Positions 26,719 to 48,553 of a DNA stretch of 64,000 nt are shown here, piece after piece. This DNA comes from Candidatus Methanoperedenaceae archaeon (GTDB lineage: Archaea > Halobacteriota > Methanosarcinia > Methanosarcinales > Methanoperedenaceae), in the NCBI GenBank assembly GCA_963753595.1, contig CAVWCX010000024.1, forward strand, positions 1-64,000, read 5' to 3'. Numbering within the stretch: position 1 is the stretch's first letter; every line of letters starts with the position of its first letter. A model generated the notes under the pieces. The model ran no database searches and was not told where the DNA came from. It saw only the letters and a list, made by a program, of their open reading frames with translations. The translations under genes were made by a program, and so were the position numbers.

Positions 26719-26955
26719 AAGTAGTTTCTCCCTGATGGTTTATTGGTGCGGAAAGGATTAAAAGGTTGCTTTTTGAGGATAAAAAGAAACTTTCTAAGTT
26801 ATAAGAAAGATATGTCATTCTTTCCGCGAGGAAGAAAAGGCTGGTGATTATATATAGCAGATTGCAAACTCAGGCCGTAAGACTCATGAGGTTGACACAA
26901 AAAACTAAACCTTTGGGCGCGCTGATATTGATTCTTTTGTTTAATCTGGCAAAGT

Positions 26956-27196
26956 AACCGCAGATTCCGAGTCGCGCCTCGGAAGGGCGCAGACACGTAT
27001 ACCCCGCTGGCATACGTGGATTCCCGCTCCCGAAGGGTAATCGGGACGCAAATAAACACAGATGCGCATCGTGATTTTCGGGCGCGCTGGATTTTTATTG
27101 TTTTGAGTTAATAATTTATGCTTATGTCCCGTTTTTAATTCGATTTTCAATAAGCGTAGCAATTAATCTGCGTTCATCTGTGTTTATCTGCGGTTT
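26956..27196. repeat. Nested inverted-repeat element with GC-rich multi-hairpin insert
   Basis: Left AACCGCAGAT..[hairpins]..ACGCAAATAAACACAGATG; right AATCTGCGTTCATCTGTGTTTATCTGCGGTT, an arm also seen at 15549-15580. Confidence 0.7.
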
Positions 27197-27334
27197 ATTA
27201 TTCAGTTATCCTATGTTCTTCTAACGCTATTTGATTTCCTGCGCCCCTCTGGCCAAATCGTTCCCTGCTCCCCCTTCGCTGACCCCGCACAGATGTGGGG
27301 CGATGATACATTTATTTTTTTCACAATATTGCTT

Positions 27335-27378
27335 CATACCGTAACGCGAAATAGATCGAAAAATTGCGTAACGGATTT
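27335..27378. repeat. Two copies of the SCGTWACGS palindrome, 27 bp apart
   Basis: CCGTAACGC at 27339 and GCGTAACGG at 27366. Confidence 0.75.
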
Positions 27379-27442
27379 TCCTTATTTCCCCTATCTGTTT
27401 TTTTTCACAATCTTTATCCATTCCCATTATAATTTAGCGCCT

Positions 27443-34949: not shown

Positions 34950-35186
34950 TATTGGTCTATTCAGTCATTTGGAATTTCCCAAATATCGCACAGCAGAACT
35001 TGAAAATGTGAATTGGTCATGTATCCCATATATACAAAATGATGGTGCTAATTTGGTCTAATTTTATTCACCAAAATGAATTGAACCCCCCTTAACATCC
35101 CCATATTCCTAAAATTACCATTATGGAACAAAACCTTTATCATTTATCGATACATTTACGGGGTACCCCCATCATTGAATCAATGT

Positions 35187-35259
35187 GCCTGGGTGGGGTA
35201 GCTGGTTATCCTATGGGACTGTGGATCCTACGACCCGGGTTCGAATCCCGGCCCGGGCC
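35187..35259 (+). tRNA. tRNA-His (GTG)
   Basis: Cloverleaf: acceptor GCCTGGG/CCCGGGC, D arm GGGT..ATCC, anticodon loop CT-GTG-GA, T arm CCGGG-TTCGAAT-CCCGG, discriminator C. Confidence 0.93.
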
Positions 35260-35286
35260 TATTGTTTTTATTTGGAGCTCTGCATA

Positions 35287-36254
35287 TGGCCAAATATAAT
35301 ATTTCAAGAATTATTAAGCCAAAAAAACAATATATTTTTATTTTACTGGCAGTAATAATTTTACTTTTTATTTTGGGTTCAGGCATATTTAAAACACAGG
35401 AAATACTTGAAAAACCAAAGCCCTCAGTTTCAATTGGTTGTGACAGGGTTTTATGGAAAGATACGGAAGAATTACTCGAAGCAACGGTCAAGAACATAGA
35501 TAATCCCTCATTTGAATGGAAATCAGACGGCACAAATATCGGTAATGGCCAGAAACTTTTACAAAAATTTGAGATAGGAGAGCACTCAGTATTGCTCAAT
35601 ATGACTTTCAATGACCAGACGCTTTCTGCAAAAAAATCCATTTTTGTCATTGATTCGGTAGATGGTATTACTATTCGCGAATATGCAGCTTCAAAAAACC
35701 AGTGGGGATTCCAGACCATGTTCAAAGGAAAAAATACAGGAGTTAAAGGGGTGATGATCTATATCGATTCATCTTCTCCATCAGAAGTAAATGCTTGCGG
35801 GGCACTCTCAACAAAAGCGCTTTTTTCAGGAAACCACACATGGACGGCAGAATACCGTGGTGCCCGGATAGCATACGGAACTTTCAATATCAAGGAAACA
35901 AGCGAACTGAAGATCGCCAGAATTGATATCGCGCCAAGCTATTCTGCTGGTAGTGAAGTTAAGGCAAAAATAATTCTTATGAATACAGGGTCTGTTGCGA
36001 TCACAGATTTTGAAACAAAGACTATTGCAATAAATAATGATTATGCCTGGATGGGAGATAAAGCAAAACGAGAATTTTCCGATCAATATAATGCAGATAT
36101 CCAGCCAGGTGCGTCATATGAGATCCCGATACAGATGACTATTCCAGAAAAAGTAAGTGGAATAAGACCATCTGGAAAATATAGTATTACAGTTAATTTA
36201 TTATTACATGGAAAAACAATTGATACAAAAATAGTATCAACGCAAGTCACATAA
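35287..36254 (+). CDS. Membrane-anchored secreted protein with Ig-like (PKD/CARDB-like) beta domains
   Basis: N-terminal TM, beta-rich body (FEWKSDG..., MNTGSV..., SGKYSITV); start MAKYN assumed. Confidence 0.65.
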
Positions 36255-36273
36255 GTTAAAATTAGGTTTCATT

Positions 36274-36479
36274 AATTCCTTTACAAAATTTTGTATATTG
36301 CTTCCCGTAACGGTATTTATCCACCAAAATCCCGTTACGCAATACATACAATAATTTCCCGTTACGCAATTGTGTATGTTGATTTCCGTAACGGTATTTA
36401 TGGACTGAAATTCCGTTACGGGATTTGACCAGAAAAATCCCGTTACGCAATTCGTCTAAAAAATTCCCGTTACGGGAAG
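36274..36479. repeat. Array of 17-bp palindromes with an exact 27-bp period and variable 10-nt linkers
   Basis: CCGTWACGS cores at 36305, 36332, 36359, 36386, 36413, 36440 and 36467, plus a degenerate copy at 36278. Confidence 0.92.
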
Positions 36480-36648
36480 TAAGTATAATATTTTTATTTA
36501 AACCTCTTATTTTAATTTATAGGACACGTTCTATAATCTGGCAAAGGTTAATCTATCCCTGGCAATAATTATCATTAGGATATTTTTTTGTTTTTAAAAA
36601 TATTTGCGTTTTTTGGGCAAAAAACACCCAAAAAAAGGCAAAAGCAGT

Positions 36649-36684
36649 AAAAACTGTATATAATATTTGTTATATACAGTTTTT
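36649..36684. other. dif-like tyrosine-recombinase site (11-6-11)
   Basis: ACTGTATATAA-TATTTG-TTATATACAGT; perfect arms extend to 15 bp; TATAA-N6-TTATA core as in archaeal dif sites. Confidence 0.7.
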
Positions 36685-36694
36685 TTGGCTAAAA

Positions 36695-37105
36695 ATGAAT
36701 CGAAATCTCTATTTGATGTTAGTAATATTTTATGCCGACGTGACCAATAAAAAATACATCAGAAAGAACTATATAACCTGCAGCAGATGCGGAAGAAAAA
36801 AAATCCATCATGCACATGGATTATGCAGTGGATGCTATATGTCGGTTCATCGAATAGAACAGATAAAAAAACATAACGCTGAAGCGTATCATAATATTCC
36901 CTACGATTTATACCTAAAAATAACAGAAAAATGCTACATATGCGGTTTTGATTCTATAGTTGAACTTCATCATATTGATGAAAACCATGAAAATATATCC
37001 TTGAATAACCTTGTCGGTTTATGTCCTAATCACCATGCTATGATCCATCATAGAGATTTCAATACAGAAATAAAAAAATTGATAACTTGTATTCAAATCC
37101 AATAA
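36695..37105 (+). CDS. Zn-ribbon + HNH endonuclease-like protein
   Basis: CxxC..H..GLCxxC N-terminal Zn module; CYICG...ELHHIDENH..N...NLVGLCPNHH HNH domain; exact start uncertain. Confidence 0.85.
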   Translation: MNRNLYLMLVIFYADVTNKKYIRKNYITCSRCGRKKIHHAHGLCSGCYMSVHRIEQIKKHNAEAYHNIPYDLYLKITEKCYICGFDSIVELHHIDENHENISLNNLVGLCPNHHAMIHHRDFNTEIKKLITCIQIQ

Positions 37106-37178: not shown

Positions 37179-38009
37179 ATGATAGTAGATGAGCGTCTTA
37201 AAAAGCTTAACACTGAGGCAAAGTTGAGAGGCTTCTCACCTCAGACAACAAAAATGTATTTGTTTTATAATCAGAAATTACTTGAATATACAAGAAAGGA
37301 ACCAGCAGATATCACAGAAGATGACATAAAAGATTATCTGGGATCCAAACTTTCTGACGATTCACTTTCAAATGCTACGATAGCGCTAATAAAAGCTGCC
37401 TTTAAATTTTTTTATACAGAAATTCTTGGAAAAAATATCTCTCAAATAAAAACTCCAAAGAGGTCACAAAAACTTCCAATAGTCCTTAGCCGGACTGAGA
37501 TAAAAAACCTCATTGAAAAAACAGAAAATATCAAGCACAGGCTTATAATTGAACTCCTCTATTCCACCGGTTTGAGACTTTCAGAATGTATCAACCTGAA
37601 ATATTCTGACCTTGATCTAAATGATGGTATAGGCTGGGTTCGTTTGGGAAAAGGTTCAAAAGACAGAATTTTTATTATTTCTGAGGTATTCAAGAAAGAT
37701 CTCCTCGACTACAAAGAGAAAAATGGTTCAGATGGAAAAGGATACATATTTTTAGTAAATGGTAAAAAAATGACATATAGAGGCATTCAGCACGCCATAA
37801 AAGTATCCGCTTTGCGCGCCGGCATCGAGAAATCCGTGCATGTGCACACGCTGCGGCATTCTTTTGCAACACACCTTCTTGAGAACGGTGTCGATATAAG
37901 GAAAATACAAAAGCTGCTTGGGCATTCGAATTTACAGACTACGCAGATATACACACAGGTATCTTCTGAGGAGATAAAGAAGATCAAAAGCCCGCTGGAT
38001 ATGCTTTGA
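37179..38009 (+). CDS. XerA/XerD-like tyrosine recombinase
   Basis: Complete catalytic set: TGLRLSE (R), GKGSK (K), HTLRH, LGH and TTQIY; N-terminal SAM-like domain; no integron-specific insertion apparent. Confidence 0.93.
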   Translation: MIVDERLKKLNTEAKLRGFSPQTTKMYLFYNQKLLEYTRKEPADITEDDIKDYLGSKLSDDSLSNATIALIKAAFKFFYTEILGKNISQIKTPKRSQKLPIVLSRTEIKNLIEKTENIKHRLIIELLYSTGLRLSECINLKYSDLDLNDGIGWVRLGKGSKDRIFIISEVFKKDLLDYKEKNGSDGKGYIFLVNGKKMTYRGIQHAIKVSALRAGIEKSVHVHTLRHSFATHLLENGVDIRKIQKLLGHSNLQTTQIYTQVSSEEIKKIKSPLDML

Positions 38010-38329: not shown

Positions 38330-38425
38330 ATCGAAACTCCCTTTTCATTACATTTCATATTTCTACTCCATAGTGATAATTGTTTCGTAGGAGAACGAAC
38401 TAACTATTGAATATAATTTGTATTT

Positions 38426-38469
38426 AATTGCGTAACGGAATTTTTTTGAATGATTAGCGTAACGGAATT
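38426..38469. repeat. Two 17-bp palindromes, 27 bp apart
   Basis: AATTGCGTAACGGAATT (38426) and ATTAGCGTAACGGAATT (38453). Confidence 0.85.
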
Positions 38470-38526
38470 TATAGAATATCTTTGAAAGATTAGTCAGTAA
38501 TATTTCCCATTTTAATATGATGAGTA

Positions 38527-38618
38527 AGTGGGCAGAAAGGGGGATTATGGTGGTATAGAAAAAATTTCTCTGCCCACTACAATTCGTATATATACGAACA
38601 AAACTATATATAGTTTAC
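38527..38618 (-). ncRNA. Putative small hairpin RNA unit 1 (TATA + TTCG-N8-CGAA operator + stem-loop)
   Basis: Minus strand: AAACTATATATAG..TTCGTATATATACGAA..GTAGTGGGCAGA-loop-TCTGCCCACT; paralog at 38665-38765. Confidence 0.45.
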
Positions 38619-38664
38619 GTTTCTTGTAAAATCACATATTATCCTCTAAAACCTGGTATAGGAG

Positions 38665-38765
38665 GTAGTGGGCTTTTGGGATTTATGGTGGTGTGGTATC
38701 GAAAAAAAATATTTTTCTGCCCACTACAATTCGTATATATGCGAACCAAAGTATTTATAGTTTAC
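38665..38765 (-). ncRNA. Putative small hairpin RNA unit 2
   Basis: Minus strand: AAACTATAAATAC..TTCGCATATATACGAA..GTAGTGGGC-loop-GCCCACTAC. Confidence 0.45.
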
Positions 38766-38863
38766 TGTCATAATCATTATAAGTATTAATATGCATGAAT
38801 ATCTGACCTGGAACACCTGTTGCTTGTATCGTTGCTCGTTATAATTTCACGATTCTTATAACA

Positions 38864-38931
38864 AAATCCGTAACGGCATTTCTAACAAAAAATTGCGTAA
38901 CGGCATCTTTATATATTCCCGTAACGCAATT
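38864..38931. repeat. Three 17-bp palindromes (27- and 24-bp spacing)
   Basis: Cores at 38868, 38895 and 38919. Confidence 0.85.
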
Positions 38932-38939
38932 AGAATATC

Positions 38940-39185
38940 ATGACTGAACGTAAATATACCCGCTGGAAAAAATGCCTTATATGTGATGATTTTGTAAAAC
39001 TCATGTTCCCGGAGGACGCAAAGGATATGCTCATGATCTACGAACCCGTAGAAGGAATGAGCGATGAATCCGGGAACTGGAAAAAAAAACAAATGGGATA
39101 TATACACCGGTCATGTCTTCTAAAAGCAGCATCACTGAAGCCAAACAATGAAGAAAGAAACAGCAGTAGTTCAGAGGTCGTATAG
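38940..39185 (+). CDS. Small Zn-finger-like hypothetical protein coupled to ubiD
   Basis: CxxC...HxxC; stop overlaps the ubiD start. Confidence 0.6.
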   Translation: MTERKYTRWKKCLICDDFVKLMFPEDAKDMLMIYEPVEGMSDESGNWKKKQMGYIHRSCLLKAASLKPNNEERNSSSSEVV

Positions 39186-47892: not shown

Positions 47893-48372
47893 CTACGGCG
47901 ACACCGGCAGTCTCTCAGAACGCTCTCTCTCGAACAGGATATCCCCATCCTGCTTGTATGTTCTCAGCACAAAATGCGTAACAGTTCCCTGCACCTGTTC
48001 AAGGGTAGCTATTTTTTCAGCAACGAAAAATGCAACTTCTTTCATGGACTTCCCGCGCACGGTGAGTGAAAGATCATGTCCTCCTGAGATAAGGCGGACC
48101 GATACAACTTCCGGGAATTTGGCTATCCGCTCTGCGATAGCATCATAGCCCGTCCTTGAACGTAAAAGAACTTTTAGCTCGATTATAGCATAAACATATT
48201 CTTCCCCTGCTTTTTCCCAGTCAATTACCGTCTTGTATTTTCGGATAATTCCCTTTTTTTCCATTTCCTTTATCTTTGAGGCAACTTGAGCTTCCGTAAG
48301 CCCTGTCATTGTTGCTATTTCTTTTGGCTGTATTTTAGGGTCGTTTTCAAGGATATCAAGTATTTCTTTCAT
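47893..48372 (-). CDS. Lrp/AsnC-family transcriptional regulator
   Basis: HTH + AsnC domain; conserved partner of the aminotransferase; start MKEIL. Confidence 0.9.
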   Translation of the reverse strand: MKEILDILENDPKIQPKEIATMTGLTEAQVASKIKEMEKKGIIRKYKTVIDWEKAGEEYVYAIIELKVLLRSRTGYDAIAERIAKFPEVVSVRLISGGHDLSLTVRGKSMKEVAFFVAEKIATLEQVQGTVTHFVLRTYKQDGDILFERERSERLPVSP

Positions 48373-48553
48373 TGTCTTGCCTCGCGGGTTTTTATTGTTC
48401 TGGGAGGTAATAGGTTTTGCCATTGGAAAAATCGACGGTTTTTTATAATTTAATTATAATAGATATAATAGGTTGTGAAAGCGTGCTGAAAGTATTTTTT
48501 TGATTAAATAAAGCAAAAGCTCTGGACGTCACCCCAAAGCCTACAACAGATTC

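Follow-up and report, generated by a model that had tools for sequence, protein, structure and literature searches.

We describe a real, non-coding array of palindromic sites repeated at exact 27-bp steps next to the recombinase gene xerA of a methane-oxidising archaeon of the Methanoperedens type, in a window (the whole stretch of DNA analysed) of 64,000 nucleotides. With a probability of roughly 0.5, these are operator sites set in phase for a putative homodimeric protein that would coat the flank of dif and xerA and control or block the adjacent transcription. The features on which the argument is built are as follows.

27334-27379, no strand: two sites (centres 27343 and 27370, 27 bp apart), upstream of the dUTPase gene
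36274-36300, no strand: unit 0, a decayed eighth copy that scores under 10 bits against the site matrix
36300-36480, no strand: main array, seven intact 19-bp sites of 18.5-27.7 bits each
36490-36523, plus strand: asymmetric 33-nt block, invariant in an alignment of 17 loci
36653-36680, no strand: perfect 11-6-11 inverted repeat ACTGTATATAA-TATTTG-TTATATACAGT, with the hallmarks of dif
36695-37105, plus strand: optional HNH-like nuclease ORF (family F5), between the inverted repeat and xerA
37179-38009, plus strand: xerA, archaeal chromosome-dimer tyrosine recombinase (NCBIfam NF040815, recomb_XerA_Arch)
38425-38470, no strand: two sites (centres 38434 and 38461, 27 bp apart), 3' of xerA
38863-38932, no strand: three sites (centres 38872, 38899 and 38923), at the promoter of the small Cys ORF/ubiD operon
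38940-39182: small Cys protein, candidate binder, conserved in 11 loci

The seven intact sites of the main array are centred at 36309, 36336, 36363, 36390, 36417, 36444 and 36471; in the window sequence the CCGTWACG strings start at 36305, 36332, 36359, 36386, 36413, 36440 and 36467, and the seven SCGTWACGS cores span 36305-36474. The exact period, the positions of the seven cores and the linkers given by the first-pass annotation were all confirmed. The palindrome was also found, but its length had been understated: the logo of 263 sites from 35 sources refined the motif to AAATnCCGTWACGGnATTT, where all seven positions of the CGTWACG core are invariant and the A/T flanks are symmetric. The central base is A in two units and T in five, and the units occur in both orientations, as had been recognised before. 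Tandem Repeats Finder reported the 27-bp period at 36408-36477 and an 81-bp period at 36287-36452 (2.0 copies, 76% matches), and the previously noted resemblance of units 81 bp apart was borne out by the closest relative (L106), compared to which the window carries an exact 81-bp, that is three-unit, insertion, a tandem duplication inside 36300-36480. Because L106 has an intact core at the position homologous to unit 0, the unit at 36274, rightly called degenerate in the first-pass annotation, reads as a decayed copy, and the array would formerly have had eight sites.

The excess of sites over chance is large. CCGTWACG gave 23 strand matches in the 64-kb window, against a mean of 0.92 and a maximum of 4 in 100 dinucleotide-preserving shuffles of the window, and a weight matrix trained only on sites from outside the window gave 15 matches scoring 12 bits or more, where 0.55 would be expected, with no match falling inside the gap between 10 and 16.6 bits. 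The weight-matrix scan yielded only four site clusters and one single site in the 64 kb. The array is not unique in the window, where further phased sites lie at 27343/27370, 38434/38461 and 38872/38899/38923. The G+C content of the region is 33%, compared to 38-46% elsewhere, and AT-rich DNA comes after the main array.

When 185,579 species genomes were scanned, arrays were found only in Methanoperedens-type archaea, in 31 genomes, and in all 31 the arrays of at least three units are restricted to a single contig per genome. The cores are invariant across these genomes and the linkers are free to vary; the DNA identity of xerA among them is only 70-86%, yet the array cores have been kept. Between relatives the number of units ranges from 3 to 9, and the arrays change by insertion or deletion of whole units. 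Among 194 spacings between neighbours, 151 are of 27 bp, 17 of 26 bp, nine of 24 bp and four of 28 bp; where the spacing was not imposed by the search pattern (n=70), 30 are of 27 bp and 17 of 26 bp. The first-pass annotation had proposed to compare linker content and unit number between strains and had named a palindrome not conserved in relatives as grounds for refutation; the palindrome is conserved. Invariant cores, strict spacing and change by whole units point to selection that acts on the cores and on the spacing, not on the linkers. In the literature on archaeal XerA/dif, Methanoperedens and Methanosarcinales no published description of the array was found, and among the matches listed for the motif strings there were only primers and unrelated sequences.

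At the variable positions (4-11 from the centre) the complementarity of the half-sites was no higher than in shuffles (z -2.1 to +0.6); because the half-sites vary independently, the symmetry of the site fits a protein dimer and not a hairpin. This result also bears on the idea that the array is transcribed, either as a mini repeat-spacer locus or as 3' UTR hairpins of the upstream gene, giving RNAs of about 27 nt. A short hairpin is possible in each unit, and rows of sites do begin within a few bases past the stop codons of the gene upstream of the array and of xerA. However, the half-sites lack an excess of complementary changes, the units lie on both strands, rows are located upstream of genes as well, no Rfam family was matched at E up to 1, and none of the 65 scanned window ORFs matched a Cas Pfam family. 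It had been correctly stated before that the spacers are too short for CRISPR: the repeats of 17-19 nt and the linkers of 8-10 nt are far under the dimensions of such loci, which combine direct repeats of at least about 23 nt with unique spacers that are equally long or longer, keep a single orientation and have cas genes or a leader nearby. An RNA hairpin or mini-CRISPR was rejected on the absent covariation together with the absent Rfam match, the earlier suggestion of short RNAs processed from the array found no support, and a transcribed array of any kind is very improbable. As a separate observation, the stem of the E element hairpin is nearly invariant, so its covariation carries little information.

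It is just as hard to believe that the array encodes a repeat protein with 9-residue units, or that it is a tandem repeat which expands selfishly and has no function. The array of the window is crossed by one open frame (ORF 36262-36450, minus strand, 62 aa), and the quick shifts in unit number would suit a selfish repeat. Nevertheless, 13 of the 32 arrays with at least four sites are closed in all six frames, the longest three of these being L052 (9 sites), L012 and L041 (6 sites each), and spacings of 26, 28, 24 and 50 bp break the reading frame; furthermore, the seven core positions are invariant, while a coding repeat would vary at third codon positions. A neutral repeat would not retain its cores over 31 genomes at the above divergence of xerA. 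The 9-aa repeat protein, which the first-pass annotation had named as the finding that would overturn its binding array, is contradicted by the closed frames and the non-triplet spacings. The CRISPR-like and coding readings are poorly supported, as are the origin and centromere readings discussed below.

The array stands in a conserved order of elements: 20 bp after it comes the 33-nt block, then, across 120-240 bp, the dif-like repeat, followed by a TATA box, the HNH gene where present, xerA and a second short row of sites. The identity of XerA is based on its score against NF040815 (261.7 bits, cut-off 220), on the Pfam matches Phage_integrase and Phage_int_SAM_4, and on its best PDB matches, the XerA proteins of P. 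abyssi (4a8e, E 4.5e-46) and T. acidophilum (5hxy). The inverted repeat at 36653-36680 is probably the dif site of XerA. It is the sole 11-6-11 inverted repeat with at most one arm mismatch in the 64 kb, and all 20 loci have one such repeat each, placed upstream of xerA (a systematic search gave 18, to which L017 and L071 are added). According to PMC8371274, dif consists of two inverted 11-nt arms and a 6-nt spacer, and PMC11840125 gives TAA-N6-8-TTA at the inner arm ends as its feature; the repeat has both the 11-6-11 arms and the TAA-N6-TTA inner ends, and the inner six bases of each arm are identical to those of T. kodakarensis dif. TATAA-N6-TTATA is present in all 18 matches, the arms occur in five variants, each self-complementary, and the spacer is always 6 bp long with variable sequence. 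A dif-like site just upstream of the xerA operon is described for haloarchaea in PMC11840125. XerA as the reader of the array was set aside: the dif-arm variants (CG/TA at arm positions 5-6) differ between genomes, while the array motif is constant.

In the window the 33-nt block starts 20 bp past the last site centre, an offset which is again 20 bp in eight of 14 loci and 17-19 bp in four. Its exact 30-mer occurs once in the window and once each in 17 loci, that is in 12 other genomes. The distance from the block to the dif-like repeat varies between loci (117-240 bp; 117.5 to 239.5), and that from the last array site to the centre of the repeat is 195.5 bp in the window and 156-257 bp in 13 of the 14 loci measured. 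The array has its fixed distance to the block, not to the dif-like repeat. With its T/A-rich box the block looks promoter-like, and it fits the local TATA consensus TTTATATA only loosely. Block, array and inverted repeat are kept together also in L052, where there is no xerA within 6 kb. The HNH-like ORF had no Pfam match at gathering score, and its best PDB sequence match was an IscB, in the HNH domain (E 3.2e-4); since it is optional (six of 20 loci), its product, suggested earlier as a partner, was discarded as such. A sigma-70/terminator scan was uninformative, the host being archaeal.

The sites at 27343 and 27370 lie 100 and 73 bp 5' of the start of the dUTPase gene (ATG 27443; NCBIfam NF002598, 202.9 bits). 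In most relatives this gene is directly beside the main array; in the window it is 9 kb from xerA, yet it keeps its sites, and the same is true for the separated dUTPase gene of L039. In L041 and L068, where dUTPase is likewise parted from xerA, sites are present upstream of a tgt-dut pair. The dUTPase sites are 65-120 bp upstream of a TATA-like box and do not overlap it. Downstream of xerA a row of 2-4 sites begins 4-30 bp past the stop codon in 12 of 20 loci. At the small Cys ORF/ubiD promoter the spacings are 27 and 24 bp, the TATA box TTTATATA (38908-38915) is placed between the second and third sites, and the third site ends 9 bp ahead of the ATG at 38940; this site-TATA-site layout, with an intact third core, was found in eight of 11 loci.

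Based on this anatomy we infer protein binding, cooperativity, and repression or insulation. Dimers of the putative binder would occupy adjacent sites side by side; 27 bp correspond to about 2.6 helical turns, so neighbouring dimers would face nearly opposite sides of the helix and could contact each other only end to end. The regular centre-to-centre spacing suggests such contacts between neighbours. A cooperative coat of about 190 bp might thus assemble on the array, act as an operator or roadblock that controls the adjoining promoter-like block, and shield dif/xerA from the transcription of the neighbouring gene. The shorter rows would repress or insulate the small-ORF/ubiD promoter, whose TATA box they bracket, and such a row also lies upstream of the dUTPase promoter. 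The binding array of the first-pass annotation is in this way upheld by invariant cores, free linkers, strict spacing and lack of half-site covariation, although its iteron, parS and segS labels were not.

Archaeal repressors include some with multi-site operators at which the TATA box and the start site are bracketed or overlapped, and cooperative rows of sites are a feature of regulators of the Lrp/AsnC type. Our sites resemble them in being palindromic and of dimer type; at the small-ORF/ubiD promoter, moreover, one site precedes the TATA box closely and another separates it from the start codon. The core promoter is overlapped or bracketed there in the above eight of 11 loci, whereas the main array is only adjacent to the promoter-like block. 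The set of sites is small and local (four clusters and a single site per 64 kb, one contig per genome), and sites stay with the relocated dUTPase gene; both suggest an operator. The locus differs from such operators in that as many as nine sites follow one another, that the 2.6-turn spacing takes neighbours out of helical phase, and that the sites are confined to a single locus per genome without an adjacent regulator gene; no constantly adjacent transcription-factor gene was found across the loci compared. Several points suggest the contrary of an operator: seven to nine sites are far above what a promoter usually needs, dUTPase, xerA and ubiD are functionally unrelated as targets, and the dUTPase sites are clear of the TATA-like box. 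Even if it were only a local operator, it would be an unusually regular one, in which as many as nine sites follow at 2.6-turn steps and whole units are gained or lost. For the small Cys protein no Pfam match was obtained at E up to 5, the protein atlas gave unnamed clusters only, and the AlphaFold2 model (mean pLDDT 67.7) had no PDB fold match below E 0.2.

A rival explanation, to be taken seriously but less probable than the phased operator, is that the coated arrays beside dif mainly control recombination or chromosome folding and that promoter effects are secondary. The arrays might impose resolution selectivity, like the accessory sequences of plasmid Xer sites, or, on either side of dif, they might form a roadblock or boundary to loop extrusion by SMC, as a sequence-specific analogue of the dif flanks that TrmBL2 binds in Thermococcus kodakarensis. 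Arrays of at least three units occur at one locus per genome, always together with the dif-like repeat, and the region is AT-rich (33% G+C). L052, which keeps array, block and repeat without xerA, accords better with a cis-acting dif module than with a regulatory region of xerA. In 18 of 20 loci xerA/dif has a row on either side, and the bias of the central base is reversed between the two sides: T:A is 67:29 upstream of xerA and 23:61 downstream (Fisher p 2e-8, with related genomes and hence samples that are not independent), which a plain repressor model does not predict. On the other hand, L041 and L068 are without a row downstream of xerA, the ubiD and dUTPase promoters have sites placed relative to genes and TATA boxes and not to dif, and the dif identity of the inverted repeat is itself something we infer. 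The recombinase accessory sites proposed in the first-pass annotation are strengthened as a rival in so far as the adjacent recombinase is XerA and a dif-like repeat is situated 195 bp away; the array lies beside a Xer core site, but not in a fixed position or phase to it, its constant distance being to the block.

Among the closest parallels are plasmid Xer sites and the dif region of T. kodakarensis. In cer of ColE1 and psi of pSC101 the regulators ArgR and PepA serve as architectural partners beside an 11-6/8-11 Xer core, as described in PMC5357621. There about 180-200 bp of protein-binding DNA lie on one side of the core, and here a 190-bp row of predicted sites is found 195 bp from the dif-like core. 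In cer and psi the accessory DNA abuts the core and is without a regular array, whereas here 117-240 bp separate the core from the block, a gap that varies, and one palindrome recurs every 27 bp; cer and psi are plasmid-borne, while the present site belongs to an archaeal chromosome with a single XerA. PMC11840125 describes AT-rich non-coding DNA on both sides of T. kodakarensis dif as protein-coated independently of dif, this flanking DNA as necessary and sufficient for an SMC boundary, and TrmBL2 as a nucleoid-associated protein whose filament on AT-rich DNA is stiff and which is a roadblock for Smc-ScpAB. In our locus AT-rich DNA and rows of sites similarly flank the dif-like repeat just 5' of xerA. 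TrmBL2 is not described there as reading a phased palindrome, in contrast to the strict motif and the strict 27-bp period seen here. The same paper reports dif-boundary colocalisation in several euryarchaea, and repeats flanking the dif sites of Thermococcales are proposed as partner sites in PMC2958812.

To our knowledge archaea are without FtsK. More tentatively still, the arrays might be the cis half of an FtsK-independent control of dimer resolution, where a dedicated protein would polymerise directionally on the oppositely oriented arrays on both sides of dif, setting the timing and direction of XerA or stalling SMC loop extrusion so that both dif copies in a dimer meet; the 33-nt block would then be a further protein site of the same machine. 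According to PMC8371274, no system driving XerA/dif toward resolution has been identified in archaea and there is no known factor giving archaeal XerA its direction, and PMC11840125 presents the DNA around archaeal dif, rather than dif itself, as what organises the chromosome. Our locus marks the probable dif site of Methanoperedens, which is of interest for methane cycling and as the host of large extrachromosomal elements. Its xerA-dif module is compact, and the motif on the flanks is strict, easy to mutate and specific to the family; the array DNA could serve as bait for the binder, and its effects on XerA recombination, transcription and chromosome folding would then be testable.

The array might be a replication origin (ORB-like or iteron) or a centromere (parS, sopC or segS-like) of the chromosome or of an integrated element, but this is improbable. 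The repeated sites beside AT-rich DNA, with opposite row polarity on the two sides, would be in keeping with it; Orc1/Cdc6 is encoded beside two sites in L049, MCM and PolB in L052, and PolX in L028, and a tRNA-His gene together with low G+C in the window hints at an old insertion. No convincing copy of the tRNA-His 3' end was found when it was sought as an integration scar. Against this reading, none of the 65 scanned window ORFs matched Pfam families of Orc1/Cdc6, Rep, ParA/ParB or SegAB, the neighbouring genes are ordinary chromosomal ones in a locus syntenic in 31 genomes, and blastn of 36290-36700 gave no match in plasmid and phage collections. An Orc1/Cdc6 gene is adjacent in only one of 24 sources (L049), at the 3' end of that gene. 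The earlier iteron, parS and segS labels were dropped accordingly: rep, orc1/cdc6, parA/parB and segAB are absent beside the array and none is constant in the relatives.

Several conserved repeats in both orientations beside AT-rich DNA are a feature shared with archaeal ORB origins, where, as described in PMC3528665, orc/cdc6 is directly adjacent and the repeats flank an unwinding element. Here the scanned ORFs of the window include no Orc1/Cdc6, the array is not directly beside such a gene, and the rows, of opposite polarity on the two sides, flank the xerA gene rather than an apparent unwinding element, with AT-rich DNA following the array. Plasmid iterons, direct repeats beside the gene of the initiator that reads them, likewise differ: there is no rep gene among the scanned ORFs, and the units are palindromic and in both orientations. 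Regarding a centromere, no operon for a ParA/SegA ATPase and a centromere-binding protein adjoins the array in the window; L071 has a MinD/ParA-type gene 4-5 kb away and the L017 island a ParB_N gene, neither of them constant. The sopC centromere of F is built of tandem units, each of which contains a palindrome for the partition protein. Our array shares with it the fixed-length tandem units, the short palindrome, the free linker and the variable unit number; unlike sopC, it has no constant adjacent gene for a partition ATPase or centromere-binding protein, it is a chromosomal locus tied to xerA/dif, and its units are much shorter (27 bp).

The seven cores of the main array, upstream of the recombinase gene xerA, follow each other with a period of exactly 27 bp. 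A direct check of the sequence over the stretch read for the array (36274-36490) bore out the phasing proposed in the first-pass annotation (cores at 36305-36467), and the ten-base linkers quoted there agreed with the sequence as well. In the window 23 strand matches of the core CCGTWACG were counted, where shuffled sequence gave a mean of 0.92 and a maximum of 4; a weight matrix made solely from the sites of other genomes, none from the window, detected 15 matches of at least 12 bits against 0.55 expected. No score fell between 10 and 16.6 bits in the window, and the 64 kb held no further matrix match beyond the following sites.

Starts 36305, 36332, 36359, 36386, 36413, 36440, 36467: seven CCGTWACG cores of the main array
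27343/27370: two sites in 27-bp phase, 5' of the dUTPase gene (NF002598)
38434/38461: two sites in 27-bp phase, 3' of xerA
38872/38899/38923: three sites directly 5' of a small ORF coupled in translation to ubiD
16130: single site of 16.6 bits, within a gene

The degenerate extra unit noticed earlier, at 36274, scores less than 10 bits; since the closest relative, L106 (L-numbers denote related loci found in other genomes by the array scan), keeps an intact core at the homologous position, it is a decayed copy. Compared with L106, the window has three units more, inserted as exactly 81 bp, which explains the resemblance between units 81 bp apart, and Tandem Repeats Finder reported both 27-bp and 81-bp periods.

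The scan covered 185,579 species genomes, one representative per species, with three exact cores in 27-bp phase as query, and it yielded 112 loci. Forty of them lie on 31 contigs of 31 genomes, which are Candidatus Methanoperedens, Methanoperedenaceae or archaeal MAGs sharing the window's genes; most of the remaining 72, all without the motif flanks, are repeats high in G+C or with a 9-bp period (flank matches out of 8: mean 1.94 and maximum 4.0, versus mean 5.42 and minimum 4.67 in the archaeal loci). Since each archaeal genome gave a single contig, arrays of at least three units are confined to one locus per genome. The closest long relative, L017, has 78-94% DNA identity to the window (matched segments, 33.9-43.9 kb), and L106 has 81-87%. 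Judged by sequence, the window comes from a member of a Candidatus Methanoperedens-type group and is chromosomal archaeal DNA, as marked by its genes for TBP, ribosomal protein L15e and the RNase P subunit Rpr2.

Among 194 neighbour spacings from 35 sources 27 bp occurs 151 times, 26 bp 17, 24 bp 9 and 28 bp 4 times, and the 70 spacings independent of the search pattern include 30 of 27 bp and 17 of 26 bp. The logo of 263 sites, AAATnCCGTWACGGnATTT, is close to symmetric: all seven positions of the core are invariant, those beyond the flanks are free, and the main array has 2-9 units depending on the genome. The palindrome is conserved in the relatives, across the 31 archaeal genomes.

A coding tandem repeat, such as the 9-residue repeat protein considered in the first-pass annotation, is contradicted by the reading frames, since 13 of the 32 arrays with at least four sites (all sources) are closed in all six; spacings of 24, 26, 28 and 50 bp, the lack of conservation of the two short ORFs overlapping the array and the invariant core make this explanation very improbable. 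Equally improbable is a transcribed RNA array or repeat-spacer locus processed into short RNAs: complementary pairs between half-sites (positions 4-11 from the centre) are no commoner than in shuffled pairs (z -2.1 to +0.6), and between 33 and 40 kb, with E up to 1, Rfam matched only tRNA-His and the eL15 leader. Since the half-sites vary independently, the dyad symmetry stems from symmetric recognition, such as that by a protein dimer, rather than from a need for base-pairing.

In an ORF clustering of the window and 23 loci the recombinase was the sole constant gene family; 20 sources have it in full, in L019 and L039 the contig end truncates it, in L003 it lies past the contig end, and L052 lacks it. 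With 261.7 bits against NF040815 (cut-off 220), and XerA of P. abyssi and T. acidophilum as its best solved relatives, the recombinase is, by homology, archaeal XerA. Its neighbours vary: dUTPase, DUF3147, ribosomal protein S8e, threonyl-tRNA synthetase, RNA polymerase subunit D, CDC48, a GTPase, tRNA-guanine transglycosylase, a MarR regulator with DUF362, and others. The order of the surrounding elements, in xerA orientation, is fixed: main array, block, unconserved DNA, inverted repeat, TATA box and xerA.

36490-36523: 33-nt asymmetric block, with its start 20 bp (8/14 loci) or 17-19 bp (4 more loci) past the last-site centre
36653-36680: perfect 11-6-11 inverted repeat, the sole one in the window with at most one arm mismatch
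36695-37105 (+): HNH-like nuclease ORF, present in 6/20 loci, where it precisely separates the repeat from the xerA TATA box
38520-38634 and 38666-38768 (+): two copies of element E, about 110 nt
38940-39185: gene of a small Cys protein (69-83 residues), conserved, with invariant CxxC ... HxxC

The block is near-invariant in the alignment of 17 loci; an exact 30-mer of it is present in the window and 12 other genomes, in a single copy in each, and the xerA genes of these 12 have 70-86% DNA identity. It may be a promoter, a terminator or a protein site. The block is better conserved than the adjacent coding DNA. The gap from block to repeat is unconserved and 117-240 bp long; in loci without insertion the consensus TATA box stands directly past the repeat, and xerA begins some 40-95 bp away from the centre of the repeat. 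The spot between repeat and TATA box seems to attract insertions: besides the HNH-like ORF, whose N-terminal part is zinc-ribbon-like, L041 carries another, different insertion there. Beyond xerA, 12/20 loci have 2-4 sites in a row that begins 4-30 bp past the stop codon; 1-3 copies of element E come next, and then the three sites at the small-ORF/ubiD promoter. There, in 8/11 loci, sites 2 and 3, spaced by 24 bp, bracket the TATA box, and site 3 is placed between TATA and ATG.

The inverted repeat was found in 20/20 xerA-bearing loci. Shuffled versions of the window gave 0.85 such repeats with at most one mismatch and, in 20 shuffles, no perfect one. Its arms occur in five variants among the genomes, each exactly complemented by the opposite arm, and its spacer is always 6 bp, free in sequence between genomes. 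PMC8371274 defines an archaeal dif by two inverted 11-nt arms around a spacer of 6 nt; PMC11840125 prints the T. kodakarensis dif as TTTTGATATAATGTACCTTATATGACAA, names TAA-N6-8-TTA as the most conserved feature of archaeal dif, and places dif-like sites just 5' of the xerA operon in two haloarchaea, and a joined xerA/dif module is described for some archaea in PMC5357621. The window repeat and the T. kodakarensis dif, as printed there, have the inner ATATAA-N6-TTATAT in common. The palindrome runs on into A and T runs and also resembles a terminator hairpin; we consider it a probable, still putative, dif site of XerA.

It was demonstrated, at the level of sequence comparison, that selection acts on the array, a row of symmetric sites in strict phase (one locus per genome for arrays of at least three units), that the array is linked with block, dif-like repeat and xerA, and that shorter rows of the same sites are precisely placed around one TATA box. 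The binder of each site is inferred to be a homodimeric protein. With 10.5 bp per turn, 27 bp amounts to about 2.6 turns, and neighbouring homodimers would sit on roughly opposite faces, which suggests end-to-end contacts along the DNA, hence a continuous coat rather than in-phase looping. An operator or roadblock coat is our primary mechanism, with a probability of roughly 0.5, based on the TATA box bracketed by sites at the small-ORF/ubiD promoter, on the fixed 20-bp offset between the last site and the promoter-like block (8/14 loci), and on the sites that stay with the dUTPase gene after its rearrangement away from xerA (in the window and L039, and 5' of tgt-dut in L041 and L068).

The recombinase accessory sites of the first-pass annotation were right as to the neighbour, XerA with a dif-like repeat; as a function, an accessory or boundary role in dif architecture is the main rival, possible and clearly less probable than the operator coat. 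The single array locus per genome and the large and variable number of sites point to it, as does L052, where nine sites, block and repeat in the usual order are followed by a pgpA-like gene, with no xerA within 6 kb. The polarity of the central base is also reversed across xerA (T:A 67:29 upstream vs 23:61 downstream; Fisher p 2e-8, where the relatedness of the genomes overstates independence). The two roles are not mutually exclusive, since ordinary regulators act as accessory proteins at plasmid Xer sites, according to PMC5357621.

An origin or a centromere is unlikely: none of the 65 window ORFs scanned matched the Pfam families of Orc1/Cdc6, Rep, ParA/ParB or SegAB, which speaks against the earlier iteron/centromere label, and L049 is the one source where Orc1/Cdc6 adjoins the array, with its 3' end, whereas archaeal origins, according to PMC3528665, are repeats flanking an unwinding element beside orc/cdc6. 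A small probability is kept on account of MCM and PolB near the L052 locus and PolX near L028. Where testable, the defining features of a CRISPR array, iterons, an ORB origin and a partition centromere were absent. The array would work in the manner of a multi-site operator; it has similarities to the accessory DNA of Xer sites and to the dif flanks that protein coats in T. kodakarensis. In the literature searched, on the motif, on Methanoperedens origin and XerA, on archaeal XerA/dif and on Methanosarcinales dif, neither these arrays nor a dif of Methanoperedens were described; what appears new is a lineage-specific phased array of putative protein sites tied to xerA-dif.

No regulator gene is constant near the arrays in the window and the relatives' loci. 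Lrp/AsnC genes are common; the one in the window (47893-48423) has no linkage to arrays in relatives. The small Cys protein could be a self-controlling binder, as the three sites at its own promoter would suit self-control. The stop codon of its gene overlaps the GTG start of ubiD. The protein has no family match, falls only into unnamed atlas clusters, and its predicted model (pLDDT 67.7, moderate) matched no known fold (best E 0.21); a partner of the UbiD-type decarboxylase and a small DNA-binding protein are both possible identities.

Element E has a hairpin, GTGGGCAGA ... TCTGCCCAC, with GGGGATTATGGTGG, TGG in varying number and a run of A in its loop, and two 16-bp TATA-rich palindromes 3' of it. 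Its 25 copies in 17 sources have an almost invariant stem, preserve no reading frame and have no Rfam match; some lie far from xerA (L007 8396, L021 10094, L024 8195).

Between tRNA-His and the array the window has a 330-residue ORF (35262-36254) with a hydrophobic N-terminal segment and no family match, common only to L052 and L106 among the fetched loci. In L017, 1234-5414 is a variable island adjoining the tRNA gene; it lies between the L15e operon and tRNA-His and has GmrSD, ParB_N-domain and rve-integrase genes; its counterpart in the window, 35083-35187, is without them. GC-rich stretches with short ATCTGCG/ATCCGCG-type repeats, seen by eye only, occupy 26900-27250, and similar repeats occur in non-coding DNA upstream of xerA in L016, L017, L045 and L071; they may represent a small dispersed element.
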